Shown here: piece by piece, positions 29,762 through 62,058 of the stretch
Layout: every line of letters starts with the position of its first letter
Numbering within the stretch: position 1 is the stretch's first letter
Virus record (IMG/VR): IMGVR_UViG_3300037484_000317
Strand: one strand, 5' to 3'
Origin: a virus
Lineage: Duplodnaviria; Heunggongvirae; Uroviricota; Caudoviricetes
Length of the DNA: 64,000 nucleotides
Made by a program: the position numbers and the translations under genes
The notes under the pieces: model-generated
What the model was told of the DNA's origin: nothing
Database searches by the model: none
What the model saw: only the letters and a program-made list of their open reading frames with translations

Positions 29762-29789
29762 TGTGTTGTGTCCTTTTGGTTGGTCATCT

Positions 29790-29832: not shown

Positions 29833-29853
29833 CCGGACGAAAGATTCTCCGAA

Positions 29854-29896
29854 ACGTGTAAGGAGAGGAAGGTCGACCGTTGCCAGGGCGAGGAAG
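29854..29896 (+). promoter_or_regulatory. conserved bipartite promoter motif (plus strand), divergent partner
   Basis: CGTGTAAG-N14-CCGTTGCC AGGGCGAGGAAG precedes the ATG at 29908. Confidence 0.55.
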
Positions 29897-29907
29897 CCGC
29901 ATTCAAA

Positions 29908-30609: not shown

Positions 30610-30882
30610 ATGAAGCTAAGTCAAATACAGTTCGACCTGCTCCGTGCTATCGCCAGCTCCGCTTCCAAGCGAATCGTTACGATCGGTGGTGGCTACTGGG
30701 CTGTAGATGGTGTTCGTGTGTCGGAGGGAGCACGTACGGTGCACGCGCTTGAGAGACGGGAACTCGTAGCGAAGCTCCCAGGCGCCAGATACAGTTCGAC
30801 CTACGAGTTGACGAAACTCGGTGTGATCCTGTTGTTGGATGCAGGGATGCACATTGGTTCCGAGGGACGGATGGCGCCATGA
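30610..30882 (+). CDS. small winged-helix-like protein
   Basis: QFDLLRAIASS…RTVHALERRELVA is wH-like. Confidence 0.4.
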   Translation: MKLSQIQFDLLRAIASSASKRIVTIGGGYWAVDGVRVSEGARTVHALERRELVAKLPGARYSSTYELTKLGVILLLDAGMHIGSEGRMAP

Positions 30883-31328
30883 CTGGACCGTATCGACCTG
30901 TGCCCCAAGCTCCGAAACAAGCGGTCTGCGCTCTTCTGACCAGGAACACTGGGCAAATCCTCGGTGTGTCGAGAAGGGGGAAGCCCGACGACATGAACTT
31001 GCCTGGGGGAAAGGTAGACCCTGGTGAGTCCCTCGAACAGGCTTGTGTCCGAGAGGTCTTTGAGGAGACCGGACTTCACATCTCCAATCTCCAGCTCGTG
31101 TTCCATCGTCTGTGTGACGGGGAGACCCCGTATGAGGCGTACACTTATACTGCCAACTTCACGGGAATTCCCTCCACACAGGAAGAGGGGCTCCATGTGA
31201 GGTGGATTGAATGGGAAGATTTACTCAAACCGTCCAACACGTTTGCTGTGTACAACAACCAGCTCTTTCGGTGTTACGCAGACAAGATCTACACGGACAG
31301 AATTGCTTCAGGTAGAACTCGACCATGA
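30879..31328 (+). CDS. Nudix hydrolase
   Basis: Nudix box GGKVDPGESLEQACVREVFEETGL (GX5EX7REUXEEXGU). Confidence 0.75.
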   Translation: MTGPYRPVPQAPKQAVCALLTRNTGQILGVSRRGKPDDMNLPGGKVDPGESLEQACVREVFEETGLHISNLQLVFHRLCDGETPYEAYTYTANFTGIPSTQEEGLHVRWIEWEDLLKPSNTFAVYNNQLFRCYADKIYTDRIASGRTRP

Positions 31329-33117: not shown

Positions 33118-35025
33118 TTGGGAGCCCTTGTGACCGAAAGCTCAATCAAAAAGCAGCTCGCCGACGCACTCGCCGACCTCCGCCATGCCTACTACAACAC
33201 GGGCGAGCCTCTCATGGACGATGATGAGTTCGACGCTCTCGTAGAACGCGCTCGTGCCATGGGCCTCGACGTGGATTCGGTTGTAGGGGCCCCCACGGAA
33301 GGGTCCGTTCCCCACAAGACCCCCATGCTGTCCCTTGAAAAGGTGACGACGGCTGAGGGTGTACGGAAGTTCGTGTCGGAGGTCGGTCGCGGGCAGGTCT
33401 TGCTCATCCAGTGCAAGTTCGATGGTGTGAGCCTCTCCCTGCACTACGAGAGTGGCAAGCTTGAGAGGGCCCTGACGCGTGGGGACGGCATGTCGGGCGA
33501 GGACGTGACGCACATCGTTTCGCTCCTGCCCAGCGTGCCCACGGCGCTTCCGGGTGCCGATGCTCCCGGTGCATTCACGGGGGAGATTCGCGGTGAGGTG
33601 GTCATCCACAAGGTGGACCTTCACGCCAAGTTCAAGAACACCCGCAATGCTGTGAGCGGTCTGCTCAACGCCCGAACGAAGTCCCCTGGAGACGCAGCCA
33701 AGTACAAGTGCCGCTTCTACGCATTTGAATTGCTGCATGCTCCCCGAGTAGAGAAGTACAGCCTTAAGGCATGGGGATTCTCTCAGCCCACAGGGTACTC
33801 GTGCACCACCTTCGAGGAGGTCTACGAACACATCCAGACCATCTTGGCGGGGCGCTCGGATCTCCCATACAGCATTGACGGTGTGGTGGTCAAGGTCGTG
33901 GACCTTGAGGTCCGTGCCAAGCTCGGCAATCGAAGCAACTCCCCCCGCTGGGCGTTCGCCTTCAAGCCGGAATCCGAGACGGCTGTGACCCGGCTCAATG
34001 GTGTGACGTGGCAGGTCGGTTCCGGTGGCCAGGTGACGCCTGTAGCCGAGCTGGAGCCCGTGGATCTGATGGGTACTACCATCGCTCGTGCTTCGCTGCA
34101 CAATCCCCTCCAGATTCAGACGCTGGGCATCTGCATCGGCGATGAGGTCGTCATCAAGCGGGCGAATGACGTGATCCCTCAGGTGGTTCGTGTCTCTGTG
34201 CCTGCCGCAGAGCGGGCTAGGATCGTCACACCGTCCGTGTGTCCCGCATGTGCGACGCGTCTCGTGCAGGAAGGCAACAGCCAGCAGGTCCAGTGCCCAG
34301 ATATCAGTGTGTGCCCGGCACAGATCTGTGGCCGCCTTCTCAAGTGGGCAGCACGCCCCGCTGCGGACATGGACGCCATCGGTCCCGTGTGGGTCGAGAA
34401 GTTCGTGGACAGTGGACTGGTGAAGTCCCCCGCTGACTTCTACACCCTGACAGAAGCCAGGCTCTCGGGCCTGGAAGGTATGGGACCGAAAAATCCCGCG
34501 AAGTTCCTCAAGAATATCGAGAAGTCCAAGGCTCTCGGTATGCGTCGGGCTCTCATCGGGTTTGCAATCCACAATGCCAGCGATGGTACAGCCAAGCGTC
34601 TCTGCTGGAACTTCAAGACGGTGGAAGAGGTGGCTACTGCCACTGAGGGACAGCTGATGTCCATCGAAGACATCGGACCTGTCGTCGCAGCGAGCATTCG
34701 ACAGTTTTTCCAGAGCGCAGGGTCGTTGCTCACGGGTCTTCGGACGGCGGGTGTGAACCTCGACCGTCTCCCAGAGGATGCCCCGGCTTCTGCCAATGCC
34801 TCCCTCGTGGGCAAGACCTTCGTGATCACGGGTGCCGTGAGTAATGGCCGCGCAGCCTTCTCCAAGGAGCTGGAGGTGCTTGGCGCCAAGGTGAGTAGCT
34901 CGGTAAGTGCCAACACGACCGCGCTCATCACGGACGATCCTGACGCAACCAGCGGCAAGGCGAAGCAGGCGAGAGACCTGGGCATTCCGTTCCTGACGGA
35001 GGCCCAAGTTCGGGCGATGTTCTGA
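33118..35025 (+). CDS. ligA: NAD-dependent DNA ligase
   Basis: Adenylation motif CKFDGVS (KxDG), an OB/zinc finger CPACATRLVQEGNSQQVQCPD…CPAQ, HhH and C-terminal BRCT-like segments. The start is TTG per the track; a GTG at 33130 is an alternative. Confidence 0.8.
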   Translation: MGALVTESSIKKQLADALADLRHAYYNTGEPLMDDDEFDALVERARAMGLDVDSVVGAPTEGSVPHKTPMLSLEKVTTAEGVRKFVSEVGRGQVLLIQCKFDGVSLSLHYESGKLERALTRGDGMSGEDVTHIVSLLPSVPTALPGADAPGAFTGEIRGEVVIHKVDLHAKFKNTRNAVSGLLNARTKSPGDAAKYKCRFYAFELLHAPRVEKYSLKAWGFSQPTGYSCTTFEEVYEHIQTILAGRSDLPYSIDGVVVKVVDLEVRAKLGNRSNSPRWAFAFKPESETAVTRLNGVTWQVGSGGQVTPVAELEPVDLMGTTIARASLHNPLQIQTLGICIGDEVVIKRANDVIPQVVRVSVPAAERARIVTPSVCPACATRLVQEGNSQQVQCPDISVCPAQICGRLLKWAARPAADMDAIGPVWVEKFVDSGLVKSPADFYTLTEARLSGLEGMGPKNPAKFLKNIEKSKALGMRRALIGFAIHNASDGTAKRLCWNFKTVEEVATATEGQLMSIEDIGPVVAASIRQFFQSAGSLLTGLRTAGVNLDRLPEDAPASANASLVGKTFVITGAVSNGRAAFSKELEVLGAKVSSSVSANTTALITDDPDATSGKAKQARDLGIPFLTEAQVRAMF

Positions 35026-36237: not shown

Positions 36238-36778
36238 GGAAGTGATAGAACAGTGTGGTGGGGATGAGTCGTGGCCTGTCAGTGCCAAACTCCTTGTTCA
36301 TAGATTACGGGCGGAGATTGCCCGTTGGCGGAATGGGACTTATCACCCTGACCCGAAGACAAATGCCGAGATCCTAGCCGACCTTGAGGAAGGTCGGGCA
36401 GTAGACCGCTCTGCCGGGATTGTTGAGGGTTGGCACAAGAGCCAGGGTGGGTATGAAATCCAGACCCTGACCACCCTCTCGATCAAAGTTGTTCGAATCA
36501 ATCGGCCTATTACCCCCACCACTGATCATTTTGTGCATGTCCTGGTAGAACGCAGGGGATGCCAAGGCCACTTTGCGCTCATGTCCCGGGACATGACCAG
36601 AGAAGAAGCTGAGTCATTTGCCCACGATCTTGGATACGACTTTGAGGGCTGCACACCGCTCTGCATTCACTGCGGAGACACGGGAGTCCTTCTAGAAGTG
36701 AGTCCAGGTGATGTTCCCCGAGAGCGCAAATGCCCTTGTGTTTCAAACGATAACAAAGAGGTCTATGGATCAGAGTGA
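36182..36778 (+). CDS. hypothetical protein with C-terminal Cys cluster
   Basis: 198-aa ORF containing CTPLCIHCGDTG…CPC. Confidence 0.5.
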   Translation: MNQPPSYTGFPSPSLQLIEEVIEQCGGDESWPVSAKLLVHRLRAEIARWRNGTYHPDPKTNAEILADLEEGRAVDRSAGIVEGWHKSQGGYEIQTLTTLSIKVVRINRPITPTTDHFVHVLVERRGCQGHFALMSRDMTREEAESFAHDLGYDFEGCTPLCIHCGDTGVLLEVSPGDVPRERKCPCVSNDNKEVYGSE

Positions 36779-38402
36779 CATGCAGAAGGCACTTGTTGGG
36801 CAACATGACAAACTCATGGGACTGATTCGTAGTCGAGCCAAGGACTTGGCTGCTTCAATCGATACGTGGCTTCGTACCGAGTACAGAGAGCCGGAAGAGA
36901 CGATGCCCAAGGTCAAGGATGGAGAAGGAGGCCCGACAGCCATGTACTACGACCTGGCTGTCAAGTACGAGAAGATGCAACAACGGGCAGAGGCCGCAGA
37001 GAAACGTACTGAGGATGTGGTTAGAGCCATTAGCAAGGCCATTACCGGTGAGGACCGTGGGATCGATACTCTGAAGTTGGTCGGTGGTAGATTACTGAAG
37101 CTGATCAAGAAGCACACTGCCAATCATCAACAGGTTGATGAGATGAGGCAATATCTGGCCGCTTTTGACATCGAGATTCGAAATCTGCACCGTAGTCTCA
37201 AAATTGCCGAGGCAAAGTGCCTGTGCGAGCCCACCGACGCGTGCAAGACGCATGGTCGGTGCTGGACTCATAGCAAGGAGGATCTCTCCGAAACATTTGG
37301 AGAGGCCGCAGAACGTCTTGGCATCCTAGATCGTGGGGAATACGAGGAAATCACAGGCGGCACCTACCCACTAGAGAATGATGAGGGATGGGGCTGCACG
37401 TGCATGCTGAACGAAGAGGGGGACATGATTGTGATGATTAGCGCTACCTGTCCCAAGCATGGGGGTTCCGCAGGCTTTCAACCGATGAGGTCCCGGCAGG
37501 GTTGGCCAAGGATCTTGAAAGTGAAGCCCTTCCTGTGCCCCGTATGCAACCGCAAGATGCTAGCCAATGGTGCCAGCTACAAGTGCTCGAACTGCGGTAA
37601 CACAGAACTTCGTTCGTGCACTTGTGAGTGGTCCATGGTCGAATCCGATGTGATCGAGAAGCTGAATCCCACTTGTCCAATGCACGGGGATGAACCCACT
37701 CGTGTGCGGATGGAACCTCCGGAAAAGGAACAGGACCGCGCGAACCGGATGCATGAGGGCATTGCCCGTACCATAGAGGAGGCGGAGTCCCTTCTTCACA
37801 TGGTGGGGCTCCCTGCTACCTTGTGGCCCTCGTTCACGCTTGAAGGATCTGGCGGTGTGGTCGCCTACAGCAAGAAGGAGTTTGATGACCTGATCCGAGA
37901 GTGTTTTCGACTGAGTGTGACACACGAGTGTCGGATACTCGGGTTTGTCTCTGGTGCCAAAGAGGTCATGAAGAGCAGGTATCTCCCTCGTGGATCCAGT
38001 GTGGAAGAGATCATGGAAAGAGTCTCGGACAGACTTGGGGCACAACCGCAAGAGAAGGCTGAGTCTGTCTCCGCTCGCAAGGCAGATAGAGCCGCTTGTA
38101 CCGTAGAAGAAGCAGAAGCCATTGTCGCAGAGATTGGCTTCCCTGTTATCCTGATCCCATCTCTCTCGCTTGATGAGAGAACCATTACTGCCGCTACAGA
38201 CAGGGAAGAATTCAACAAGCAACTCCCAATAGTCTTCGGGCGAAGTCCAGTTCATGAGATTCGAATTGTCAAGTTGGGTCCCGTGCGCTTTCTTCTGGAT
38301 GACTTGAGACAGGCTCGGAAGCTGTGCGGGACTGTGGATTACTCCTCCAGCCAGGAAGCTCTTTTGAAGTTCTGGCAATCCATGCGGAGTGTTCTAGGAT
38401 GA
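36765..38402 (+). CDS. large hypothetical protein with internally repeated Cys modules and duplicated C-terminal segments
   Basis: Repeats GWGCTCMLNEEGDMIVMISATCPKHGG / RSCTCEWSMVESDVIEKLNPTCPMHGD, and TIEEAESLLHMVGLPATLWPSFTLEG / TVEEAEAIVAEIGFPVILIPSLSLDE. Confidence 0.55.
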   Translation: MDQSDMQKALVGQHDKLMGLIRSRAKDLAASIDTWLRTEYREPEETMPKVKDGEGGPTAMYYDLAVKYEKMQQRAEAAEKRTEDVVRAISKAITGEDRGIDTLKLVGGRLLKLIKKHTANHQQVDEMRQYLAAFDIEIRNLHRSLKIAEAKCLCEPTDACKTHGRCWTHSKEDLSETFGEAAERLGILDRGEYEEITGGTYPLENDEGWGCTCMLNEEGDMIVMISATCPKHGGSAGFQPMRSRQGWPRILKVKPFLCPVCNRKMLANGASYKCSNCGNTELRSCTCEWSMVESDVIEKLNPTCPMHGDEPTRVRMEPPEKEQDRANRMHEGIARTIEEAESLLHMVGLPATLWPSFTLEGSGGVVAYSKKEFDDLIRECFRLSVTHECRILGFVSGAKEVMKSRYLPRGSSVEEIMERVSDRLGAQPQEKAESVSARKADRAACTVEEAEAIVAEIGFPVILIPSLSLDERTITAATDREEFNKQLPIVFGRSPVHEIRIVKLGPVRFLLDDLRQARKLCGTVDYSSSQEALLKFWQSMRSVLG

Positions 38403-42026: not shown

Positions 42027-42614
42027 ATGGCTCATTACTACTCGCTTGATCACCTAGTCACTTTCATCGAGGGTCCCAACGGTGAAGCGTGCTGCCGTAT
42101 TCTCGCTGACCACAGGAAGCTTTTCCAGGTTGTGCAAGGCTCGACGAACAATCACCAGGCATGGGCCGGTGGCTACTTCGATCACGTGCAAGAGGTAATG
42201 AACATCGCTATCGTGCTCTACAACAAGCTGCACGAAATCCGTGAGCTGCCGTTCACTGAATCTGACACTCTCTTGATCCTGTTCCTCCACGACATTGAGA
42301 AGCCGTGGAAGTACGAGTTGAAGGACGGCATCCTCTTCCACGTTCCCTCTCTGGAGACGAAGGATCAGGCTCACGAGTTCCGCGCTGCGAAGCTCCGCGA
42401 GTACGGGATCGTGCTCACGGAGGAGCAGCAGAACGCTCTGCGATACGTTGAGGGGGAGTTCGAAGACTACTCCTCTCGCCGGAGAGTCATGGGGCCGCTT
42501 GCAGCTCTCTGTCACATGGCAGACGTGGCCAGCGCTCGAATCTGGTTTGACCACCCGAAGGAATTCTCGGACGATGAGCCGTGGTTGGACGCAGGACGAC
42601 AACGTGACAAGTAA
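42027..42614 (+). CDS. HD-domain phosphohydrolase (YfbR-like 5-prime-deoxynucleotidase family candidate)
   Basis: H…HD motif: GGYFDHVQEVMNIA … LILFLHDIEKPW. Confidence 0.6.
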   Translation: MAHYYSLDHLVTFIEGPNGEACCRILADHRKLFQVVQGSTNNHQAWAGGYFDHVQEVMNIAIVLYNKLHEIRELPFTESDTLLILFLHDIEKPWKYELKDGILFHVPSLETKDQAHEFRAAKLREYGIVLTEEQQNALRYVEGEFEDYSSRRRVMGPLAALCHMADVASARIWFDHPKEFSDDEPWLDAGRQRDK

Positions 42615-45227: not shown

Positions 45228-46751
45228 ATGAAATTCGACTTCCTCACCCCTGCTGATAAGCCAGCCTGCTATCATGTAGCCAACCCACAGGGTTTGGACG
45301 TCAAGTTGTTTGCGAATCCCAACGTCCTCCTAGAGAAGGATGGGTTCGCGCAGCTCTTTGACTTCCTGGACGTGGCCCGTGCCGTTTCCGACGTGCGGGA
45401 GGCGGAAGTCAAGGGCAGGTTGTCCTACTTTAGGGATGCCCCTGCTGGCATAGACAAGGTCGTTCTGACTCCGGATTTCCACAAGGGGTCTTTCGTTCCT
45501 GTGGGTGTTGTCCTTCGGGCCAATCACTTCGTCATCCCACAGGCCATCGGAAACGACATCTGCTGCGGGATGCGTCTCTTGGTGACGGACATTCCGGTAG
45601 AGGCACTGGATCCCTACTGGCCTGACATCCAGAAGCGGCTACGTGCGATCTTCTTTGCAGGCGAGCGGAATATCCCAATGTCTCCCCGCCAGCGAGAGGC
45701 TGTACTTCGTGAGGGTTTGCCTGGTCTCTTGCGGTTTGCCGAAGACAACGAGAAGACCGGCATTTGGACTCGGTTTGACCGTGCTTCTGAAATGGCCAAC
45801 GTGTCCAGGGCGCACAACAATGGTCAGGTAGAGACTACTCGTCTCTTTGGATTCGAAAAGTTCATCCGCTCTTCCGGAAAGGTGGATGGACGAGATCCTC
45901 AGATCGGATGTGTGGGAGGTGGAAACCACTTTGTGGAGCTGCAACGCATTGATGCTCTCTACTCGTCTCAAGCGCACGAGTGGGGATTGAGCAAGGGATG
46001 TCTGGCTATCATGGTCCACTCCGGGTCTGTGGCGCTGGGTCATACCGTTGGTGGCTACTTCATGGGACGCGCTAAGGAGCTTTTCCCGACGACCGTGAAG
46101 GCTCCGGCAGAAGGCTTCTACCCCATCCCCACAGATGGCCCACTGGCAGATGAGGGACGTTTCTACCTAGACGGGATGGGCAATGCCGCGAACTTCGCTT
46201 TTGCCAACCGCCTCTTTCTTGGGTTGATGGCAGTTCGCGCAATCGAAGAGGCCACAGGGCGCACGGTTTCATCTCGGCTAGTGTATGATGCACCCCACAA
46301 TCTCGTGTTCCACACCGGGAAGAGCATGGTCCATCGGAAGGGTGCCACACCTGCGTACGGCCCTGATGAGAAGGACTACAACGGTCGCCCGGTAATCATT
46401 CCCGGGTCCATGGGGGCGGCTAGTTATCTTCTAGCAGGTCTCGGAAATGAGAACGCTCTTTCGAGCGCATGTCATGGAGCAGGACGGGCTTTGTCGAGAA
46501 GCAAGGCTTCTCATGTGGCTAAGGATGTCTACGAACGTGAGACTGGTGGGCTGCGAATCGTGGGTCCCGTAGACTTCAGGGACCCAGCTCTTTCTCGCCG
46601 ACGGGACATCCTAGATAACTACGAGAAGAGAATGATGGAGGAAGCGCCGTACGCGTATAAGGCTGTGGAGCCTGTAGTTGACTCTGTTGTCGATGCTGAG
46701 ATTGCAACGAGGGTCGCTCGACTCTGGCCCATTTGCACGGTGAAGGGGTAA
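45228..46751 (+). CDS. rtcB: RtcB RNA ligase (long, archaeal/eukaryal-type, 507 aa)
   Basis: GGGNHFVELQ metal-binding motif and the C-terminal HGAGR motif carrying the GMP-attachment His. Confidence 0.8.
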   Translation: MKFDFLTPADKPACYHVANPQGLDVKLFANPNVLLEKDGFAQLFDFLDVARAVSDVREAEVKGRLSYFRDAPAGIDKVVLTPDFHKGSFVPVGVVLRANHFVIPQAIGNDICCGMRLLVTDIPVEALDPYWPDIQKRLRAIFFAGERNIPMSPRQREAVLREGLPGLLRFAEDNEKTGIWTRFDRASEMANVSRAHNNGQVETTRLFGFEKFIRSSGKVDGRDPQIGCVGGGNHFVELQRIDALYSSQAHEWGLSKGCLAIMVHSGSVALGHTVGGYFMGRAKELFPTTVKAPAEGFYPIPTDGPLADEGRFYLDGMGNAANFAFANRLFLGLMAVRAIEEATGRTVSSRLVYDAPHNLVFHTGKSMVHRKGATPAYGPDEKDYNGRPVIIPGSMGAASYLLAGLGNENALSSACHGAGRALSRSKASHVAKDVYERETGGLRIVGPVDFRDPALSRRRDILDNYEKRMMEEAPYAYKAVEPVVDSVVDAEIATRVARLWPICTVKG

Positions 46752-52213: not shown

Positions 52214-52867
52214 TTGACACCTGAACCTTCTGGTATATGTTACCAGTACCCAAAGACAAACAAGATGGCACCCAAAGAAACACGAAATCCTTTCCGATGG
52301 TCACGAGACACTCCGGCAGTCACGCCGAGTATCGTGCTGACTGACCCTCGCTACCCACACAACGTGGGGGCTGCGGTCCGTGCATGCTCGTGCTTTGGGG
52401 TGAAGCAAGTGTGGCTCACGGGTCATCGGGTCGCAGACCAGGTGGCAAAGGCTCAGAGGCTTCCACGTGAAGAGCGCATGAAGGGCTTCTCTGACGTTCA
52501 ACTGGTCCTGGAAGACCGTCCGTTCGACTACTTCGGGAAAGTCACCCCTGTCGCAGTGGAGCTTCTAGAGGGGAGTGAGAACCTCCTGACGTTCGAGCAT
52601 CCTGAGAACGCGGTGTACATCTTCGGACCCGAGGATGGCAGCATCCCTGGTCCGGTGCGCAAGCTGTGTCATCGTCGGGTGTTCATTCCTACACGGCACT
52701 GCACCAATCTAGGCGCCGCAGTGTATCTCTTGTTGTACGACCGCATGGTCAAGGATTTTCATGCGGGCCGGATACAGTCCCTGCCAATCAGCGAGACTCT
52801 GGCTGAAGATCGTGGCTGGGCTGTGGATGACAATCCCGAGTTCTCGGTAGCGGTAGCAGGAAAGTAG
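52214..52867 (+). CDS. SPOUT (SpoU/TrmH-type) RNA 2-prime-O-methyltransferase
   Basis: VVLTDPRYPHNVGAAVRACSCFGV… and AVYIFGPEDGSIPGPV match the TrmH/SpoU motifs. Confidence 0.7.
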   Translation: MTPEPSGICYQYPKTNKMAPKETRNPFRWSRDTPAVTPSIVLTDPRYPHNVGAAVRACSCFGVKQVWLTGHRVADQVAKAQRLPREERMKGFSDVQLVLEDRPFDYFGKVTPVAVELLEGSENLLTFEHPENAVYIFGPEDGSIPGPVRKLCHRRVFIPTRHCTNLGAAVYLLLYDRMVKDFHAGRIQSLPISETLAEDRGWAVDDNPEFSVAVAGK

Positions 52868-52870
52868 ATC

Positions 52871-54040
52871 ATGGCACTCTCAGAAATCAGCTCGTCAAAC
52901 GTCCCCGTCAAGATCTGGTCGCCCCTCAAGGACGTCGAGTCGGCAGCGTTGACGCAGCTTCGTAATACGGCCTCTCTTCCGTGGGTCGCACACCACGTAG
53001 CGGTTATGCCCGATGTCCATTTCGGAATCGGAGCGACGGTAGGAAGCGTTGTCGCCATGCGCGGGGCTGTTTCCCCGGCTTGCGTGGGTGTCGACATTGG
53101 CTGCGGAATGGCTGCAATCCGCACCAGTCTCCGCTCGCATGACCTTCCTCACTCCCTGCTTGCACTGCGCACGGACATCGAGACCGCAGTGCCTGTCGCA
53201 CACAACGGGCACAGCAAGGGAATGAGCCCTTATGCCCGCAAGAGTGAGCTGTGGGCAGAGTTCAAGGACTTGCACCCCAAGGTTCAGGACTTGCTCTCCA
53301 AGGCGCAGATTCAGCTTGGCACTCTGGGGGGTGGCAATCACTTCATCGAGATTTGCATTGATACTGAGAAGCGCGTGTGGGTGATGCTGCACTCGGGCTC
53401 GCGGAACATCGGCAAGTCCTTGGCTGAGATCCACATCGCGGTGGCCAAGAAGCTTGAGCACAACCAACCCCTGGTGGACCGAGACCTTGCGGTGTTTCTT
53501 GCGGGCACAAAGGAGATGCAGGACTATCGGCGAGATCTGTACTTCGCACAACGCTACGCGGCTGAGAACCGACAGGTGATGATCTCGCTGGTCAAGGACG
53601 TGATGGTCAAGCACTTCCCGCAGGTCACCTACGACCCGGTGATTGCGTGCCATCATAACTACGTCTCTGAAGAGACGCACTTTGGAGACGATCTGTTCGT
53701 GACTCGCAAGGGTGCCATCTCGGCCCGCAAGGGTGAGCTTGGGATCATTCCTGGCAGCATGGGCACCAAGTCCTACATCGTGAGTGGGCTTGGTTGTGAA
53801 GAGAGCTTCTGCTCGGCTTCGCATGGTGCTGGGCGCCGCATGTCACGAGGTGACGCAAAGCGGCGCTTCACACGAGATGACCTCGAAGAGCAGACGGCTG
53901 GTGTCGAGTGCCGCAAGGACGGGGGCGTGATCGACGAAATCCCAGCTTGTTACAAAGATATCGATCAGGTCATGGCGAATCAAGGCGATCTCGTGGCGAT
54001 CGTACACGAACTGAAACAAGTCCTGTGCGTTAAGGGATGA
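52871..54040 (+). CDS. rtcB: RtcB RNA ligase (short bacterial-type, 389 aa)
   Basis: GGGNHFIEICID and C-terminal SHGAGRRMSR. Confidence 0.8.
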   Translation: MALSEISSSNVPVKIWSPLKDVESAALTQLRNTASLPWVAHHVAVMPDVHFGIGATVGSVVAMRGAVSPACVGVDIGCGMAAIRTSLRSHDLPHSLLALRTDIETAVPVAHNGHSKGMSPYARKSELWAEFKDLHPKVQDLLSKAQIQLGTLGGGNHFIEICIDTEKRVWVMLHSGSRNIGKSLAEIHIAVAKKLEHNQPLVDRDLAVFLAGTKEMQDYRRDLYFAQRYAAENRQVMISLVKDVMVKHFPQVTYDPVIACHHNYVSEETHFGDDLFVTRKGAISARKGELGIIPGSMGTKSYIVSGLGCEESFCSASHGAGRRMSRGDAKRRFTRDDLEEQTAGVECRKDGGVIDEIPACYKDIDQVMANQGDLVAIVHELKQVLCVKG

Positions 54041-55122
54041 AGATGGATCAGACTACAGCAGTCGAGCGTTTGCGGAAGGCAAAACGTCCTGAAGACATCT
54101 TCGGGACGCTTGCGGAAGGCCCACTTCCGACGCGCTTGCACGCACTGAAGCACCGCTTCGATAGTCTTCTACTGCATGTGCATCCGGACCGTAATCCTGA
54201 CTTGCCGGATGCGGGACTACACATCACTCGCCTTATGGCTCTCCGAAAGGAAGCAGAGAACCTGTTGCAGACGGGGGCTTACGGCAAGGTGCGCAAGGCC
54301 GTGGTCGAAGCCGTGCTCAAATCTCGTACGGGCGTGTACAAGGTGCACAAGGAATATCGGGTGGGGGAGGTTGCAGACTTGTTCCTCGGCGAGACGGACA
54401 AGGGGCAGAAGTGCCTGTTGAAGGTGGTTCGGCACCCGAGTGAAAACGACCTACTTGATTTCGAAGCACGGACACTTGCGGAGCTGCACAAGCAGACTGG
54501 GGACAAGGCGAAGACCTTCCAGAAGTACCTTCCGAAGCTTCTCGACAGCTTTCCGCTAATCGAGGGGGGTAAACACCGGAGGGTGAATGTCTTGGACGTG
54601 GCTGAGGACTACGTCTCTCTCGCGGAGATTCACGCCGCATACCCTGACGGCATTGACCCCCGTGATGCGGCCTGGATGATTCGACGAGTCTTCGAGGTGC
54701 TCGGCTGGATTCACGAACTGGGGTACGTCCACGGTGCGGTGCTTCCAGAGCATGTGCTGGTTCACCCGACAGGACACGGAGCACGCCTAGTGGGCTGGTC
54801 CTATGCGGTCAAGACAGGACAACGGCTCTTGGCAGTCAGTGCTCTTCGCAAGGACATGTACCCGCCGTCTGTCATGAGCCGTAAGCCCGCCACACCAGTG
54901 CTTGACGTCCAGCTCGTTCGTGAGTGCGCAACTATCTTGCTGTCCGACAAGAACGGTTTGCTGCGGGCCGATGTACCGAAGGCACTCTCGGCTTTCCTGA
55001 CCAAGTGTAAGAGTGGAAAAGTCCTGGACGGTTGGGATGCCTACCGTGAGTACAACGAAGTTCTGAAGAAGTGTTATGGCAAGCGGGAGTATCGCGCGTT
55101 TGCGATGCCGACGAGTGTCTGA
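54037..55122 (+). CDS. J-domain (DnaJ-like) protein fused to a degenerate protein-kinase-like domain (pseudokinase)
   Basis: J-domain EDIFGTL…LKHRFDSLLLHVHPDRNPD…LHITRLMALRKEAENLL with the HPD motif. The kinase fold is QKCLLKVV (VAIK-like), …FEARTLAELH (alphaC), IHELGYVHGAVLPEHVLV (HRDLKPEN with D to A and K to V), and HGARLVGWSYAV (DFG replaced by VGW). Confidence 0.55.
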   Translation: MKMDQTTAVERLRKAKRPEDIFGTLAEGPLPTRLHALKHRFDSLLLHVHPDRNPDLPDAGLHITRLMALRKEAENLLQTGAYGKVRKAVVEAVLKSRTGVYKVHKEYRVGEVADLFLGETDKGQKCLLKVVRHPSENDLLDFEARTLAELHKQTGDKAKTFQKYLPKLLDSFPLIEGGKHRRVNVLDVAEDYVSLAEIHAAYPDGIDPRDAAWMIRRVFEVLGWIHELGYVHGAVLPEHVLVHPTGHGARLVGWSYAVKTGQRLLAVSALRKDMYPPSVMSRKPATPVLDVQLVRECATILLSDKNGLLRADVPKALSAFLTKCKSGKVLDGWDAYREYNEVLKKCYGKREYRAFAMPTSV

Positions 55123-55136
55123 GAAGGAGAGTCAAA

Positions 55137-56108
55137 ATGGGATATTCAAGCTGGTCGGGCGACGCATACGATCACATCAGCAGGCCACGTGCGAAGATGG
55201 ACTACGGCACTGCGAGGGCAACAGTCTTCTCGTCTCGACTCAAGTCGAGTCTCGACCCGAAGGGTGTGAAGGTTCGAGAGTCGCGAGACAGCGCCGACCA
55301 TCCGGAGAGCAACGCGATCGGCGTGCTGTTCGATGTGACGGGCAGCATGGGGCAGACGCCGTATGAGTTCGCCCAGAAGAAGTTGGGTGGCCTGATGAAG
55401 ATGCTCGTCGACAAGGGTGTGATCGGCCACCCCCAGGTACTCTTCGGCGCGATCGGCGACTCCTACTCGGACACAACGCCGTTCCAGGTCGGGCAGTTCG
55501 AGTCGGGCGTCGAGATGGACACATGTCTCACGGACATCTTCATCGAGGGCGGCGGCGGTGGCCAAAACAAGGAGAGCTACGGGCTGGGGCACTACTTCTT
55601 CGCACGTCACACGTCGATCGACTGCTCTGAGAAGCGTGGAAAGAAGGGCTACCTCTTCACGGTCGGTGACGAGCTGGTCTGGCCGACAATCACGGCCGCC
55701 GAAGCCGAGCGGGTCTTCGGGGACACGATCGAAGATACAACGGTGGCTGACCTCATCCATGAGTGTGAGAGCCGCTACAACGTGTTCCACATCGTCGTGG
55801 GGACGTCCACCGGTAATCGGCCTGAGATCCTCGCAGGATGGAAGGCGCTGCTCGGCGAGCGTGCACTCAAGCTCGATGACCCGGACAACATCTGCGAGCT
55901 GATTGCAGCGACCATAGGCCTCTGCGAGGGGCACAGCCTCGATGTGGTGAATGGCGTTCTGCGGGACTCCGGAGCCAGCGCAGGCGCCGTGAAGTCGGTT
56001 GGGGCTGCCATCGTTCCGCTGCGGGACTCCCTGGCGCGTTCGGCCGTTGGTTCGATCCTCGGGAACCTCCCAGCAAGCGCTGCACCCAGCGGCACCATCC
56101 GCCTCTGA
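55137..56108 (+). CDS. von Willebrand factor A (vWA) domain protein with MIDAS
   Basis: VLFDVTGSMG (DxTGS MIDAS) plus downstream T and D residues; a GAAGGAGAG RBS precedes the internal ATG. Confidence 0.6.
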   Translation: MGYSSWSGDAYDHISRPRAKMDYGTARATVFSSRLKSSLDPKGVKVRESRDSADHPESNAIGVLFDVTGSMGQTPYEFAQKKLGGLMKMLVDKGVIGHPQVLFGAIGDSYSDTTPFQVGQFESGVEMDTCLTDIFIEGGGGGQNKESYGLGHYFFARHTSIDCSEKRGKKGYLFTVGDELVWPTITAAEAERVFGDTIEDTTVADLIHECESRYNVFHIVVGTSTGNRPEILAGWKALLGERALKLDDPDNICELIAATIGLCEGHSLDVVNGVLRDSGASAGAVKSVGAAIVPLRDSLARSAVGSILGNLPASAAPSGTIRL

Positions 56109-56111
56109 GCC

Positions 56112-57374
56112 ATGTCCACCCACATCGTCACTGATCTGGGTTTTGGTGACGGTGGGAAGGGCACCATAGTCGATGCGGATGCGCGTCGCTGTTCGAGTCC
56201 ACCACTTGTGGTGAGGTACAACGGCGGCGCGCAAGCTGGACACAACGTGCATACAGCGGACGGGCGGCACCATACATTCTCACAGTTTGGGGCCGCCACG
56301 TTTGTACCGGGCTCTAGGACGTTGCTTTCGAAGCACTTCATCCTGCACCCGGGTGGGCTCATGGTTGAGAACGAGCACCTTGTCTCGCTTGGCGTTACTG
56401 ACGCCCTCAAGCGTCTCAGTATCGACGCACGAGCGCTGGTCATCACGCCGTATCATCAAGCCGCCAACCGTCTACGGGAAGCTGCTCGTGGTTCGGCTCG
56501 GCATGGCACTTGTGGTTTAGGGATTGGGGAAACGGTCGCCGATTCACTAGAGCACAGGGACGAAGCTTTGCGTGTGGCAGATCTTCTGGACCCCGCAACC
56601 CTTCGGCGAAAACTTTCCTCCGCGTGTGAGAGGATGCACCAGCAGATGCCATTGCCGTGGTCCGTGCGAGCGAACTTTGAGCTATGGCGTACGGCAGATC
56701 TGCTTACGAAGATCGGAAAGTTTCTTCATGTCATCTCCGCAAGTGATGCAGATTCTCAAATCAGAGAGTCAGAGCATGTGATTTTCGAGGGGGCACAGGG
56801 CGTGCTCCTCGATGAGTGGCTTGGGTTCCATCCGCACACAACGTGGAGCACCACGACCACGGCAAACGCTGACGCCATGATTGCGGAGACTGGCCGCACC
56901 GGGCCCGTAGAGCGAATCGGCGTCGTTCGTGCGTACGCAACCCGCCATGGTCAGGGCCCGTTCCCCACGGAGGATGCAGCACTCACAGAGCAGCTCCGCG
57001 ATACCCACAACACGGACACTGGACCTCAGGGCAGCTTCCGTGTCGGTTGGTTTGATGTGCCCCTCACCAAGTACGCATTGAGTGCGTGCCCTGGGATCAC
57101 GTCTCTCGCTGTGACGTGTCTCGATCGTCTTGCAAATGTTCCCGAGTGGTCTGTATGCGAGGCGTACGAAGGGGGAGATCGTCTAGTAGTGAACCACGGG
57201 CATGACCTCGCGTACCAGGAGCAACTGACGCACTACCTCATGGGGTGCACGCCCGTGCTGCGGGGGGTACCCAGTGATGTCCAAGGGTACGTGCGCGAGA
57301 TCGAGCAGTGTACAGGTCTGCCGGTCTCTGTCATTTCGCTGGGCCCCACAGCAGAAGACAAGCGCTGGATTTAG
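56112..57374 (+). CDS. adenylosuccinate synthetase family protein (PurA-like; candidate PurZ)
   Basis: P-loop GDGGKGTIVD (canonical GDEGKGK), VVRYNGGAQAGHNV, TCGLGIGET, FEGAQGVLLD, AYATRHGQGPFPTE, and SLGPTAEDK are collinear with PurA along the whole length. Confidence 0.75.
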   Translation: MSTHIVTDLGFGDGGKGTIVDADARRCSSPPLVVRYNGGAQAGHNVHTADGRHHTFSQFGAATFVPGSRTLLSKHFILHPGGLMVENEHLVSLGVTDALKRLSIDARALVITPYHQAANRLREAARGSARHGTCGLGIGETVADSLEHRDEALRVADLLDPATLRRKLSSACERMHQQMPLPWSVRANFELWRTADLLTKIGKFLHVISASDADSQIRESEHVIFEGAQGVLLDEWLGFHPHTTWSTTTTANADAMIAETGRTGPVERIGVVRAYATRHGQGPFPTEDAALTEQLRDTHNTDTGPQGSFRVGWFDVPLTKYALSACPGITSLAVTCLDRLANVPEWSVCEAYEGGDRLVVNHGHDLAYQEQLTHYLMGCTPVLRGVPSDVQGYVREIEQCTGLPVSVISLGPTAEDKRWI

Positions 57375-57817: not shown

Positions 57818-58093
57818 ATGACTGCATGGGTCGAAAAAAGTCCGGGTCAGAACGCTGCTGTGATCGACGAAGACAGCGGTCTAGGTGACTCCGCAGTACT
57901 TGTGGGGCTGGACAGACTTGATTGGATTCGGCTTCCTGAGAAGCTGGGTGGGATGCAGGTACGTGTCCTTTCCAGAGAACAGACGTTGTGCCCATTCCAC
58001 AAGAATCATGATTGCGCCCATTACCACCTAGACAGTGGATTCTCTGTGGCTGAGTGTGACCAGTTCTATTGGTACAGGAAGGTCACCCCGTGA
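57818..58093 (+). CDS. hypothetical small protein
   Basis: ATG after the upstream TGA. CPFHKNHDCAHYH. Confidence 0.4.
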   Translation: MTAWVEKSPGQNAAVIDEDSGLGDSAVLVGLDRLDWIRLPEKLGGMQVRVLSREQTLCPFHKNHDCAHYHLDSGFSVAECDQFYWYRKVTP

Positions 58094-58692
58094 AGCACTA
58101 TCCAAGCGTCAGTCGAGAGCCCCGGTACGGAGCACCATGCTACGTGTTCCCGAAGTACGACGGGTCGAACATCCGCGTCGAGTGGTCGCCCAAGAAGGGC
58201 TTCTCGAAGTTTGGATCCCGCAAGGTTCTGATCGGAGATGATGCTCTGCTTGCTGCTGCGTTCCCCCTACTTCGTGAGCATGAGGATGCCCTCGCGAAGA
58301 TCTTCCGTGGGGAGCGATGGGAGCGGGTGATTTGCTTCTTCGAGTACTGGGGCCCGAAGTCGTTTGCTGGGCTGCACGAGCCCGGGGACGTGATGAGCAC
58401 GACACTCATTGACCTTGACGTGTTCAAGCGGGGTCAAATCGACCCACGGGACTTCATCAAGCTCACGGAAGGCTTGCCCAACGTGGCGCAGTGCATCGGC
58501 ACTCGGTTCAACGCTGAGAACGCTGAACAGGTCCGGGACGGTACGTTCGAGGGGCAGACCGATGAGGGTGTCGTCTGCAAGGTGCCGTCATCTCGCAAAT
58601 GGGAACCGCCGTACATGTTCAAGAGCAAGCGGTCTACCTGGATTGAGCGGGTCTATGCTCTTCACGGGGCACGAGCGGAAGAGTTCCTGTGA
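58090..58692 (+). CDS. ATP-dependent RNA ligase, minimal nucleotidyltransferase domain (Rnl2/Rnl-like)
   Basis: Motif I FPKYDGSNIRV (KxDGxN adenylation Lys), III ICFFEYWG, IV LIDLDVF, V EGVVCKVPSSRKWEPPYMFKSK. The GTG start overlaps the upstream stop. Confidence 0.6.
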   Translation: MKHYPSVSREPRYGAPCYVFPKYDGSNIRVEWSPKKGFSKFGSRKVLIGDDALLAAAFPLLREHEDALAKIFRGERWERVICFFEYWGPKSFAGLHEPGDVMSTTLIDLDVFKRGQIDPRDFIKLTEGLPNVAQCIGTRFNAENAEQVRDGTFEGQTDEGVVCKVPSSRKWEPPYMFKSKRSTWIERVYALHGARAEEFL

Positions 58693-60837: not shown

Positions 60838-62058
60838 ATGAAATTCTCGATCAGTAGGAAGAGCCTTTTGCAGGGTCTGGATTGTATTCGCACCACGGCT
60901 GCTAAGAAGAGCACAATTCCAATCCTGAACGGTGTCTGTCTCAAGGCAGAGGGAAGTGGCGTATGCTTCTCCGCAACAGACTGCACTGTGTTCATTCGGA
61001 CTCAGATCGCAGCGACGGTTGCACTGGAGGGCTCCGTTGTGGTGAATGCCCGAGATCTCTACGACATTGCGAAGGTGTTACCAGACGGACCTGTGACCTT
61101 CGAAGTGAGCGAGCACCTTGTACTGGAAGTGACTTGTGGGAGAATTAGCCACAAGTTGCAGGGCCATTCGAGCGAGGACTTTCCGGTGTTCCCTGAACGT
61201 GTGGATGCGGGGTGTGTGAAGATTGATGTGGGGATGGTCAAGGAGTTGATTGACTGCACCCAGTACGCAATCTCGAATGGGAATTGGAACAGCCCGGGTA
61301 CCTGTGGGGCTTCCTTTGAGTGTGATGGTGGCACTCTTCGTATGATCGCTACAGACGGCCTGCGCCTCAGCAAGGCGGAGATCAAGATGGATGGGGTTGT
61401 GTCCGACTTCAAGATGCTCGTGCCGTCCAAGGGCATCCAAGAGCTGCTGGGGCTCGTTGAAGGGGTTCAGGTCAGTCGTAAAAAGGGAGATCATCGAGGC
61501 GCGGCCCGATGGCAACCTCTGGTGGTTGAAGTGAGTCAAGAGCGTGGGACAGCGTTCTTTTACAGCTCTGGGATACAACTCTCGGTACGGCTTATCGAAG
61601 CTACATTTCCTTCGTACGAGTACGTCATCCCCAAGAAGGATGAGATCGTTGTACTTGCCTCGCGGATTGTTCTGCTAGAGGCATTGAAGAGGATCTCTCA
61701 TGGTAAGTGGGGTAGCGTTCGGCTTGAGTTCCTTCCAGGGAAGTGGAACAGAGACAGCTCTGAATATCTTTCAGGGAGTCTGAAGATCTTCAGTGCCGAT
61801 CCTAATGTGGGTGAAAGATCCGAGGAGGTCACCGTGGATTACACGGGGGACCCCATCACTATCGGGTTCGAAGCGATGTACCTGCTCGATGTGCTCGGAG
61901 CCCTGCATTCCGATGAGATTTCGCTAGGATTTTCTGTGACCAAGGGGACATCGAACACAATCAATCTGATGACTATCCGACCTGTACAAGAGTACAGTTA
62001 CATCGATTTCGTGGGTTTGGTCATGTCATTGCGGGCAAAACCAGACGGGACCTTTTGA
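60838..62058 (+). CDS. dnaN: DNA polymerase III beta sliding clamp
   Basis: The N-terminus MKFSISRKSLLQGLDCIRTTAAKKSTIPILNGVCLKAEGSGVCFSATDCTVFIR is collinear with DnaN, and the three-domain length fits. Confidence 0.7.
   Translation: MKFSISRKSLLQGLDCIRTTAAKKSTIPILNGVCLKAEGSGVCFSATDCTVFIRTQIAATVALEGSVVVNARDLYDIAKVLPDGPVTFEVSEHLVLEVTCGRISHKLQGHSSEDFPVFPERVDAGCVKIDVGMVKELIDCTQYAISNGNWNSPGTCGASFECDGGTLRMIATDGLRLSKAEIKMDGVVSDFKMLVPSKGIQELLGLVEGVQVSRKKGDHRGAARWQPLVVEVSQERGTAFFYSSGIQLSVRLIEATFPSYEYVIPKKDEIVVLASRIVLLEALKRISHGKWGSVRLEFLPGKWNRDSSEYLSGSLKIFSADPNVGERSEEVTVDYTGDPITIGFEAMYLLDVLGALHSDEISLGFSVTKGTSNTINLMTIRPVQEYSYIDFVGLVMSLRAKPDGTF

Follow-up and report, generated by a model that had tools for sequence, protein, structure and literature searches.

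To our knowledge, two activities of the adenylosuccinate synthetase (PurA) superfamily are recognised in phages so far: ordinary AMP synthesis and that of PurZ, which rewrites the genetic alphabet. Multi-gene systems centred on a vWA protein are represented by the MoxR-vWA pairs, and the Aravind group has reportedly described a triad made of a TerY vWA protein, a kinase and a phosphatase. Regulators of the NrtR type are repressors of NAD genes and are released by ADP-ribose (PMC2330246), and some members of the family control pathways other than NAD. Here we analysed a 64-kb stretch of DNA, referred to as the window, in which a first-pass annotation had singled out a PurA homolog as either a purine auxiliary metabolic gene (AMG) or a candidate PurZ. 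Judged from sequence comparison, its product is neither an ordinary AMP-synthesis enzyme nor the PurZ of diaminopurine phages. It is a member of a distinct clade of the adenylosuccinate-synthetase superfamily and probably the enzyme of a three-gene module that also contains a vWA protein and a J-domain pseudokinase (J-kinase). The features discussed below are collected in Table 1.

Table 1. Features of the window considered in this work.
Feature	Position	Strand	Length	Evidence
J-domain + Hanks-type pseudokinase partner	54037..55122	+	361 aa	homology, AF2 fold, profile
Divergent vWA/MIDAS-domain partner	55137..56108	+	323 aa	homology, AF2 fold, profile
PurA-superfamily enzyme of vWA-linked clade	56112..57374	+	420 aa	family scores, residues, phylogeny, linkage
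Nudix hydrolase	30879..31328			72 bits
HD-domain candidate	42027..42614			20.5 bits, under cutoff 22

Family assignment and phylogeny of the PurA-like protein

The PurA-like open reading frame starts with ATG and ends with TAG. All motifs quoted for it in the first-pass annotation are present in the sequence, i.e. the altered P-loop GDGGKGT, VVRYNGGAQAGHN, TCGLGIGET, FEGAQG and TRHGQGPFPTE. The proposed full-length collinearity with PurA was also borne out, as PF00709 (Adenylsucc_synt) aligned nearly end to end, from residue 6 to 416 of the protein and from position 2 to 414 of the 416 in the model (258 bits, E = 1e-76). The best match with a solved structure was E. coli PurA (E = 1e-40). However, the protein scored well below the cutoffs of both PurA equivalog models (200.7 bits vs 395.55 for TIGR00184 and 209.7 bits vs 402 for NF002223) and of the PurZ model of NCBIfam (NF038379, 47.4 bits vs 300). 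Long members of the PurA-like family carry extensions that are only low-complexity or Cys-rich, and a domain fusion was rejected on this basis. In databases, PHROG 1211 and RefSeq give the group the same label as the gene of PurZ phages, and PGAP names the bacterial members 'adenylosuccinate synthetase'.

A neighbour-joining tree was calculated with PurZ and PurZ0 references and four canonical PurA sequences, none of them archaeal or actinobacterial. Bootstrap support was 100% for the vWA-linked clade, 100% for PurZ together with PurZ0 and 90% for the canonical PurA group. The window protein fell into the vWA-linked clade, outside both other groups, and shares 18–24% identity with PurZ/PurZ0. 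Thus, the phylogenetic comparison suggested in the earlier annotation yields a separate clade that joins none of the reference families. This branch is large and apparently undescribed.

A three-gene module shared by phages and bacteria

In the window, the J-kinase gene is followed by the vWA gene and the PurA-like gene is the last of the three. The first-pass annotation had overlooked this module. The start of the J-kinase gene overlaps the RtcB stop as ATGA, and the ATG of the PurA-like gene lies 3 nt past the vWA stop. These tight junctions suggest that the triad is an operon. Each of the three proteins has a homolog in mycobacteriophage Sebata, where gp263 is the PurA-like protein, and on the Actinomadura viridis chromosome. 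The J-kinase protein shares 29% identity with Sebata gp260 (E = 8e-43) and 34% with its Actinomadura counterpart (E = 1e-51); for the vWA protein the values are 33% with gp261 (E = 1e-52) and 46% (E = 2e-82). The window genes scored 415 bits with the J-kinase profile and 437 bits with the vWA profile.

To assess how frequent this arrangement is, we searched PurA-like loci with the partner profiles. A vWA gene was detected in 231 of 240 loci and a kinase-like gene in 208 of 240. Among the loci without a detected partner by BLAST, 8 of 9 are contig ends with less than 2 kb upstream. The reciprocal search started from the vWA protein, and of the 80 loci it covered, 77 have a PurA-like gene. In cultured phages, the PurA-like gene occurs in 203 records of the Mycobacterium-Mycolicibacterium group, 10 of the Rhizobium group and 6 of the Vibrio group, and the vWA gene in 202, 10 and 6 records of the same groups. 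Adjacency of the vWA gene is near-universal and that of the kinase-like gene is usual, in phages and bacteria alike. Adjacency of genes is not a proof of physical interaction among the triad proteins. Members of the clade occur on approximately 180–245 viral contigs and in over 587 species-representative genomes of bacteria; over 200 cultured phages carry one too, the much-studied cluster C1 mycobacteriophages among them. The carriers of the triad are big phages and many bacteria. Rhodococcus and Agrobacterium megaplasmids harbour an extra copy of the PurA-like gene. In the literature we found no description of the combination of PurA-like, vWA and J-domain kinase genes.

Besides the triad itself, all-against-all clustering of the open reading frames from 160 loci identified just two conserved neighbours, NAMPT and a regulator of the NrtR type. 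A large fourth cluster proved to be an antisense-ORF artefact of high-GC DNA. The window triad is surrounded by genes of RNA repair (RtcB, a SpoU methylase and an RNA-ligase-like gene), and Pnk is found near the triad in C1 phages. A link to RNA repair was nevertheless rejected, since RtcB, SpoU, RNA ligase and Pnk recur in none of the other loci, which marks them as local context.

The phage origin assumed for the window is plausible. It is supported by the phage-type accessory genes and by the closest relatives of the triad, which occur on IMG/VR contigs and in cultured phages, whereas no structural genes were identified among the open reading frames scanned. A megablast search with 19 kb of the window against the phage collection returned no close DNA relative.

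The J-kinase and vWA partners

The J-kinase protein contains the HPD motif of a J-domain at residues 49–51. In its kinase core, HGA (residues 232–234) replaces HRD, and Gly replaces the Asp of DFG. Across the kinase-like family, 86% of the proteins have Ala instead of the HRD Asp, whereas HPD is 81–88% conserved. The Hanks-kinase domain is thus predicted to be catalytically dead. Homologs bear both PF00069 and PF00226 and are often named 'molecular chaperone DnaJ' by NCBI, and PHROG 3043, labelled 'kinase', matches the window protein with E = 2e-35. The AF2 model (pLDDT 94) found its best Foldseek matches in YabT, PknB and VRK1, with a TM of about 0.7. We also considered a known defence system and rejected it, as PADLOC returned two weak, generic kinase-domain matches for the J-kinase protein (MkoA, E = 3e-5; mad6, E = 8e-4) and none for the vWA and PurA-like proteins.

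In the vWA partner, Gly2 is invariant, the MIDAS motif reads D-x-T-G-S-M and the tail, which ends in RL, is disordered. A GAAGGAG Shine-Dalgarno sequence is located 7 nt 5′ of its ATG. The protein belongs to PHROG 2971 (function unknown) and matched no model of Pfam, NCBIfam or PADLOC; a sequence search of the PDB with the vWA profile gave nothing significant. Its vWA fold was confirmed at the level of the AF2 model (pLDDT 89), with vWA-domain proteins dominating among the Foldseek matches listed from the PDB.

Neighbouring genes of NAD metabolism

A gene of the NrtR type, encoding a Nudix domain and an NrtR winged helix, adjoins the triad in 33 of the 80 loci from bacteria and in 13 of the 160 viral ones. 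In the bacterial loci it is mostly immediately upstream and on the same strand, and the Agrobacterium plasmid copy of the triad has one alongside as well. NAMPT adjoins the triad in 14 of the 160 viral loci, and near the Rhizobium phage copy there is a gene annotated as NMNAT/Nudix and another that resembles a phosphoribosyltransferase. Across the 64-kb window, neither NrtR nor NAMPT was matched. Our literature search found no PurA-like gene in the reported NrtR regulons, and PurA is not mentioned in a survey of viral NAD/ADP-ribose functions. Given that NrtR is the first gene of the operon in many bacteria and that some phage copies adjoin NAMPT or NMNAT, NAD/ADP-ribose turnover possibly activates the module or is its target. 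For the window phage this link is indirect.

Active-site residues

To compare the active sites, we tabulated residues for 263 members of the clade, using E. coli PurA numbering for the reference positions. From E. coli PurA structures (Honzatko/Fromm) we take Asp13 to be the catalytic base and His41 the acid, Asp333 and Ser414 to specify guanine, Asn38, Thr129 and Arg143 to be ligands of the IMP 5′-phosphate, and Arg131, Thr300/301 and Arg305 to belong to the aspartate site. Arg303 of the E. coli enzyme touches both IMP O2′ and aspartate (PMC8342488). The catalytic and GTP residues are kept throughout the clade (D13 99%, K16 99%, H41 100%, Q224 99%, D333 100% and S414 94%) and all six are present in the window protein, which also retains the P-loop Gly and Lys. 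Lys331 is the exception, being Cys or His in the clade.

The substrate pockets look different. On the IMP side, N38 is replaced by Q in 100% and T129 by C in 97% of the members; the R143 position is variable and Thr239 is kept. The ligands of the IMP 5′-phosphate are therefore lost at N38, T129 and R143. V273 is replaced by H in 100% of the members. On the aspartate side, R305 is changed to F in 86% and R303 to G in 68%, R131 is hydrophobic and T300/T301 are deleted. At the R131, T300/301, R303 and R305 positions the window protein has Leu136, the deletion, Gly307 and Phe309, respectively. It also carries the complete clade signature (Q41, H131, C134, E140, W245, H279, N300, Q306 and F309), of which the replacement pocket residues Q41, C134 and H279 are nearly invariant. 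Read from residue conservation, the aspartate and IMP-phosphate pockets of the clade are rebuilt around an intact GTP and catalytic machinery. As the catalytic residues are conserved at 99–100% and the pocket replacements are themselves nearly invariant, changed specificity fits these data better than decay.

These residues bear directly on whether the gene is a genuine adenylosuccinate synthetase AMG that boosts AMP synthesis, with the vWA and J-kinase proteins merely regulating or stabilising it. The full-length PurA fold with its kept catalytic and GTP residues, E. coli PurA as the best solved-structure match, the PGAP name of the bacterial members and the NAD-salvage neighbours, which would suit a demand for adenine nucleotides, all speak for such an enzyme. 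We nevertheless regard it as unlikely. Its scores are about half of the PurA equivalog cutoffs (201–210 vs 395–402 bits), it stands apart from canonical PurA in the tree, and the residues R131, T300/301, R303 and R305 as well as N38, T129 and R143 are replaced, while even the distant PurZ and PurZ0 still conserve N38, T129, R305 and T300/301. Moreover, the gene is found as an extra copy on megaplasmids of Rhodococcus and Agrobacterium, and it occurs in bacteria that would be expected to own purA. What survives of the first-pass reading is an unusual PurA-family homolog with an altered P-loop in a non-routine gene; neither of the two identities offered for it, PurZ or bona fide PurA, holds.

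Proposed function of the module

We infer that the PurA-like protein catalyses a partner-dependent, GTP-driven amination with an amine other than aspartate. According to the pattern of residue conservation, a purine-type substrate would be phosphorylated by GTP on its lactam oxygen, and the amine would then displace the phosphate. This amine is probably something other than L-aspartate in its free form, and a plain nucleoside 5′-monophosphate is unlikely to be the acceptor. The vWA protein would serve as an obligatory subunit, a scaffold or a substrate, and the J-domain, with its conserved HPD, would tie the module to host DnaK. A partner protein could in principle provide the missing aspartate-binding groups. 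The phage would plausibly benefit by keeping or reshaping nucleotide pools while the host consumes NAD.

A more specific version, which we consider improbable, is a protein-nucleotide ligase that joins a GTP-activated 6-oxopurine nucleotide to an amine of its own vWA partner rather than to free aspartate. The idea draws on the replacement of the aspartate-binding arginines by aromatic or hydrophobic residues, on a vWA protein that invariably starts with Met-Gly and conserves RL in its tail, and on the near-obligate pairing of the two genes. The best candidate amine would be the invariant N-terminal glycine, bared by removal of the methionine, and the product a conjugate in which the purine nucleotide is linked to the protein through N6. 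Formation or removal of this conjugate would be controlled by the J-domain/DnaK arm together with ADP-ribose sensing, and Nudix enzymes might trim it.

It is also improbable that the PurA-like protein is a GTP-binding regulatory or scaffold subunit devoid of ligase activity, in a module working through protein-protein contacts of the vWA domain, the J-domain and DnaK. Remodelling of both substrate pockets would fit such a role, as would a dead kinase beside vWA and J domains, which are interaction modules; yet conservation of Asp13, His41, Lys16 and Gln224 at 99–100% and the near invariance of Q41, C134 and H279 point to altered specificity and not to decay.

Relation to Z-genome phages

The first-pass annotation had listed an HD-domain protein and a Nudix hydrolase in the window as possible companions of a PurZ. 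The Nudix gene has a clear family match, and the HD assignment turned out to be weak (Table 1). No alignment was obtained between S-2L DatZ and the HD protein (E = 0.42) or between S-2L MazZ and the Nudix protein (E = 1.1), and a Z-cluster was rejected for this lack of similarity. The annotated open reading frames of the window, which covers 64 kb of a genome of approximately 160 kb or larger, include a DnaN clamp gene and no recognised PolA-type polymerase. A search with S-2L PurZ matched 201 phage records, with no C1 mycobacteriophages, the carriers of the closest homologs, among them. Conversely, the vWA match list contains no PurZ/PurZ0 phage group, and a profile search over the full genome sequence of S-2L, a Z-genome phage, found neither the vWA nor the kinase-like partner. 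PurZ and PurZ0 retain N38, T129, V273 and R305. At the Asp13 position, Asp in the window protein, 4 of 4 PurZ/PurZ0 references have Ser, which in S-2L PurZ is S23 (PMC8342488).

That the window protein converts dGMP to N6-succino-2-amino-dAMP in a phage with a diaminopurine (Z) genome, as an altered P-loop in a phage-borne PurA homolog and the gene name shared with PurZ phages in PHROG 1211 and RefSeq might suggest, is thus very improbable in view of the NF038379 score (47 vs 300 bits), the kept Asp13, the 18–24% identity and position outside the PurZ/PurZ0 clade, the window lacking a DatZ or MazZ homolog and, among its annotated open reading frames, a PolA-type polymerase while holding a DnaN clamp, the 201 PurZ records devoid of C1 mycobacteriophages, and an aspartate site that is mostly gone here (R305, T300/301) yet kept by PurZ.

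Discussion

Our analysis points to the PurA-like gene as a third branch of the PurA superfamily in phages. If the inferred chemistry is true, the enzyme would make an undescribed derivative of a purine nucleotide, or else an undescribed adduct of nucleotide and protein, with a possible connection to the NAD/ADP-ribose axis that is central in current work on phage-bacterium conflict. The clade is concealed by the labels 'PurA-like adenylosuccinate synthetase', 'adenylosuccinate synthetase' and '2-aminooxy adenylosuccinate synthetase', and such names could mislead and cause false predictions of purine AMGs or Z genomes.

Compared with PurA (EC 6.3.4.4, PF00709, TIGR00184), the clade shows an identical fold from end to end, has about the size of the bacterial enzyme, and shares the P-loop Gly/Lys, Asp13, His41, Gln224, Asp333 and Ser414. 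It differs in an identity of only about 30%, scores near half of the equivalog cutoffs and swapped ligands of the IMP 5′-phosphate and aspartate, and canonical purA does not have vWA and J-domain pseudokinase genes as neighbours. PurZ/PurZ0 (NF038379) resemble the clade as phage-borne PurA paralogs with altered substrate-pocket residues and, in some databases, a shared product name. However, they are of the archaeal type with approximately 340–400 aa, have Ser at Asp13, keep N38, T129, V273 and R305 and are accompanied by DatZ, MazZ and DpoZ, in all of which they differ from what is seen here, and S-2L does not possess the vWA and kinase partners. NrtR regulons are resembled in the NrtR-type gene beside many triads and in NAMPT beside some viral ones, in contrast to the window triad, which has neither.

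The MoxR-vWA and TerY systems differ from the PurA-like triad in their AAA+ MoxR ATPase and PP2C phosphatase, both missing here. Furthermore, the triad kinase has lost the catalytic Asp, the enzyme has a PurA fold, and neither Pfam nor PADLOC has a model that matches the vWA protein. The likeness lies in the combination of a MIDAS-type vWA protein with an NTP-dependent enzyme and a protein of the kinase fold, and in the expected recruitment of a chaperone-like ATPase, which in the PurA-like triad is presumably DnaK, reached through the J-domain.

A PurA-like enzyme outside the canonical PurA and PurZ clades

The open reading frame at 56112-57374 (plus strand) was confirmed, with 420 codons, an ATG start and a TAG stop, and its product carries the motifs listed in the first-pass annotation (GDGGKGT, VVRYNGGAQAGHN, TCGLGIGET, FEGAQG and TRHGQGPFPTE). 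The collinearity with PurA (adenylosuccinate synthetase, AdSS) also held, as the Pfam model Adenylsucc_synt was matched end to end at 258 bits; the best relative of solved structure was E. coli PurA (E = 1e-40). Neither identity proposed for the protein, bona fide PurA or PurZ, survived the curated tests: it scored 201-210 bits against the NCBIfam PurA equivalogs (cutoffs 395-402) and 47 bits against the PurZ model (cutoff 300). Identity was 29-31% to canonical PurA and 18-24% to PurZ/PurZ0. The closest cultured relatives (~41% identity) are cluster C1 mycobacteriophages, none of which was among the 201 phage records matched by S-2L PurZ in a tblastn search. Two further genes had been considered as possible DatZ and MazZ. 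The Nudix gene is solid and the HD assignment was sub-threshold; they showed no similarity to S-2L DatZ (E = 0.42) or MazZ (E = 1.1).

Neighbour joining was applied to 39 sequences over 380 columns, with 200 bootstraps; the tree had references for PurZ (S-2L, phiVC8, PSA28, ZP6), PurZ0 (Ghobes, HunterDalle, Cicada, Hiyaa) and canonical PurA (E. coli, Acinetobacter, Staphylococcus), plus one megaphage PurA-like gene. PurZ and PurZ0 formed a single clade (100% bootstrap), and the canonical PurA sequences grouped with the megaphage gene (90%). The window protein fell in neither group; it belongs to a distinct third clade (100%). Database labels for the enzyme are 'PurA-like adenylosuccinate synthetase', 'adenylosuccinate synthetase' and '2-aminooxy adenylosuccinate synthetase'. 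The last (PHROG 1211, RefSeq phage records) labels the proteins of PurZ/PurZ0 phages as well as the present clade, which is unrelated to them, and the shared name could produce false Z-genome predictions.

A conserved three-gene module

A conserved module of three genes (triad) ends with the PurA-like gene, which comes after a kinase-like gene and a gene for a vWA-domain protein. Phage Sebata encodes a 'Ser/Thr kinase' (gp260), a hypothetical protein (gp261), a small gene and the PurA-like gp263, and the window carries homologs of all three proteins in matching order (kinase-like, 29% identity, E = 8e-43; vWA-like, 33%, E = 1e-52; PurA-like, 39%, E = 3e-77). The arrangement is identical on the Actinomadura viridis chromosome, where the kinase-like partner shares 34% identity with its window counterpart and the vWA partner 46%. 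It also occurs in one Myxococcaceae MAG and one phage-like contig, and further copies lie on Rhodococcus and Agrobacterium megaplasmids. In pattern scans, at least 179 IMG/VR contigs and more than 587 species-representative genomes proved to carry a member of the PurA-like clade, the taxa including Myxococcota, Chloroflexota, Micromonospora, Actinomadura, Patescibacteria and Planctomycetota.

To count partners, six-frame translations of 240 loci (three sets of 80) were searched with profiles. Viral loci seeded with the PurA-like gene contained the vWA gene in 77 cases, the kinase-like gene in 62 and the PurA-like gene in 80; the corresponding counts were 74, 72 and 80 for genome loci, and 80, 74 and 77 for viral loci seeded with the vWA protein. 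BLAST detected neither partner at nine loci, and eight of these are contigs ending less than 2 kb upstream. Pairing with the vWA gene is thus near-obligate, and the kinase-like gene is frequent. Among cultured phages the vWA partner was found in 202 Mycobacterium/Mycolicibacterium, 10 Rhizobium and 6 Vibrio records, and the PurA-like clade in 203, 10 and 6 records of the same host groups. No PurZ/PurZ0 phage group appeared in the vWA match list, and neither partner was found in the S-2L genome. In Vibrio phage pv27 and Rhizobium phage RHph_Y65 the vWA gene lies directly upstream of the PurA-like gene with no kinase-like gene found within 6 kb, indicating that the vWA and PurA-like pair is the core.

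The genes are tightly packed in the window: the RtcB stop and the kinase-like start overlap as ATGA, a Shine-Dalgarno sequence (GAAGGAG) precedes the vWA ATG at 55137, and 3 nt separate the vWA stop from the PurA-like ATG. Proteins P0386, P0266 and P0009, encoded on a 160,816-bp JGI contig that is probably the source, are 100% identical to parts of the triad products (54037-57374) and are called short (295/361, 303/323 and 246/420 aa). Long antisense ORFs over the triad, e.g. 55146-56273 (minus strand), could have confused gene prediction there.

The vWA and J-domain partners

The 323-aa partner had no Pfam, NCBIfam or PADLOC match and is hypothetical in every source. Its AlphaFold model is confident (pLDDT 89), and the structure matches listed were almost solely vWA domains, including VWF A3, the integrin beta I-domain, NorD and the Rea1 MIDAS. 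The protein retains a MIDAS-type motif (D-x-T-G-S-M). Gly2, directly after the initiator Met, is invariant, and the tail is disordered, often with RL at the end. In Mycobacterium phage Darko the vWA gene (locus L264, 301-2085) has an in-frame insertion of 254 aa that shows the hallmarks of an intein, namely Cys first, a LAGLIDADG-like block (LAGVYDGEG) and Asn last, followed by Cys. It lies within the conserved motif KGY-x-F-x-x-GDE, and several other C1 phages gave the same two-piece tblastn match of ~1.58 kb.

The model of the 361-aa partner (pLDDT 94) has a Hanks-type kinase fold (TM ~0.7 to YabT and PknB). In front of it is a domain of four helices in which HPD falls between II and III, the J-domain topology. 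Homologs match PF00226 and PF00069 and are often named 'molecular chaperone DnaJ' by NCBI. Across 216 homologs, the beta3 Lys (86%) and alphaC Glu (89%) are kept, the HRD Asp is replaced by Ala in 86%, and only 56% have the DFG Asp, for which the window protein has Gly; each HPD position is conserved in 81-88%. Loss of the catalytic Asp with conservation of HPD predicts a pseudokinase with a functional-looking J-domain.

Genomic neighbourhood

NAD-related genes are frequent neighbours of the triad. A NrtR-type regulator (Nudix plus NrtR winged helix) adjoins it in 33 of 80 bacterial loci, mostly directly upstream on the same strand, with a few oppositely oriented or downstream; among the 160 viral loci, 13 have a NrtR-type gene and 14 an adjoining NAMPT. 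A divergently oriented NrtR-type gene lies alongside the Agrobacterium plasmid triad, the Rhodococcus plasmid triad has a divergent Nudix gene behind it, and genes annotated as NMNAT/Nudix and phosphoribosyltransferase-like are close to the copy in the Rhizobium phage. NrtR proteins repress genes of NAD metabolism until ADP-ribose releases them, and certain family members have been co-opted for other pathways (PMC2330246); Table 1 of that paper includes the uncharacterised NrtR targets nrtX-nrtY. Neither NrtR nor NAMPT was found in the 64-kb window. Directly downstream of the triad on Agrobacterium vitis plasmid pAvCG78a (locus L266, 9349-14774) are a MoxR-type AAA ATPase gene (AAA_5) and genes for DUF5682 and DUF4132 proteins, which may be a second vWA/MoxR-style system.

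The window itself is likely part of a large phage, since its triad is nearest to those of IMG/VR contigs of 100-300 kb and phage-type accessory genes are present, namely those for a homing endonuclease, a NinI-like phosphatase, a DHH phosphoesterase, two copies of RtcB, an NAD-dependent DNA ligase and DnaN. ARAGORN detected no tRNA gene in the 64 kb, and none of the ORFs scanned was recognised as structural. The triad is set in an RNA-repair neighbourhood that is not conserved at other triad loci. In C1 mycobacteriophages, a polynucleotide kinase gene lies two genes upstream of the triad. Gene strand changes at ~28000-30000, from mostly minus (10-28 kb) to mostly plus (from 28 kb), and coincides with the cumulative GC skew minimum, which suggests a divergent transcription point or replication origin.

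Features of the window outside the triad
Feature	Position (nt)	Remark
Homing endonuclease	6742-7581	
NinI-like Ser/Thr phosphatase	9263-10249	
DHH phosphoesterase	11282-12196	
PcfJ-like protein	15773-17050	
DUF4419 protein	21514-22731	250 bits
NAD-dependent DNA ligase	33118-35025	
564-aa protein	36708-38402	short ATP-grasp (CPSase L) match
RNA-repair-type cluster around triad	45228-46751, 52214-52867, 52871-54040, 58069-58692	two RtcB paralogs (283 and 405 bits), SpoU-family 2'-O-methyltransferase, RNA-ligase-like gene (weak match, PHROG 548, E = 8e-9)
DnaN sliding clamp	60838-62058	

Substrate pockets and proposed function

E. coli R303 touches the IMP 2'-oxygen and aspartate (PMC8342488). 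E. coli PurA (mature numbering) served as the reference for an alignment of 263 clade members. Residues kept include G12, D13 and K16 (99% each), G15 (97%), G17 (98%), H41 (100%), Q224 (99%), T239 (98%), R306 (99%), D333 (100%) and S414 (94%). The replacements are N38Q (100%), I126H (97%), T129C (97%), P135E (95%), S240W (92%), V273H (100%), G298N (98%), G302Q (98%), R303G (68%) and R305F (86%); R131 varies among M, L, V and I, R143 is variable, K331 becomes C or H, and T300/T301 are deleted. In E. coli PurA, N38, T129 and R143 bind the 5'-phosphate, and R131, T300/301 and R305 bind aspartate. The clade has lost these ligands. Judged from the alignment, the catalytic and GTP-binding residues are intact, and both substrate pockets appear rebuilt with conserved new residues and a loss of net positive charge, which argues for altered specificity and not decay.

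We propose, with moderate confidence, that this PurA-superfamily clade works in a vWA/J-kinase module in GTP-driven amination with a non-aspartate amine and a possible tie to NAD/ADP-ribose; confidence is far lower for the finer points, for instance the identity of the substrate. A 6-oxopurine-type substrate would be O-phosphorylated in a GTP-dependent step, and the phosphate then displaced by some amine that is not free aspartate. The vWA protein may be a subunit, scaffold or substrate, the J-domain could recruit DnaK, and NAD/ADP-ribose turnover may induce the module or be the process in which it acts. The module differs from what the first-pass annotation proposed. Both the enzyme superfamily and the three folds are already known; the widespread PurA-paralog module is uncharacterised, and no description of this gene combination was found in literature searches or in the most relevant survey. 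It is well defined and experimentally tractable, as cultured phages (Bxz1, Sebata) and culturable bacteria exist.

A genuine AdSS regulated by its partners is unlikely given the rebuilt aspartate pocket. Despite their extreme distance from E. coli PurA, PurZ/PurZ0 still have aspartate as a substrate. PurZ itself is essentially excluded by the model score and the position outside the PurZ and PurZ0 clade. Unlike the vWA-linked clade, PurZ/PurZ0 retain N38, T129, V273 and R305, and the Ser at D13 that is a feature of PurZ/PurZ0 is a change that the vWA-linked clade does not share.
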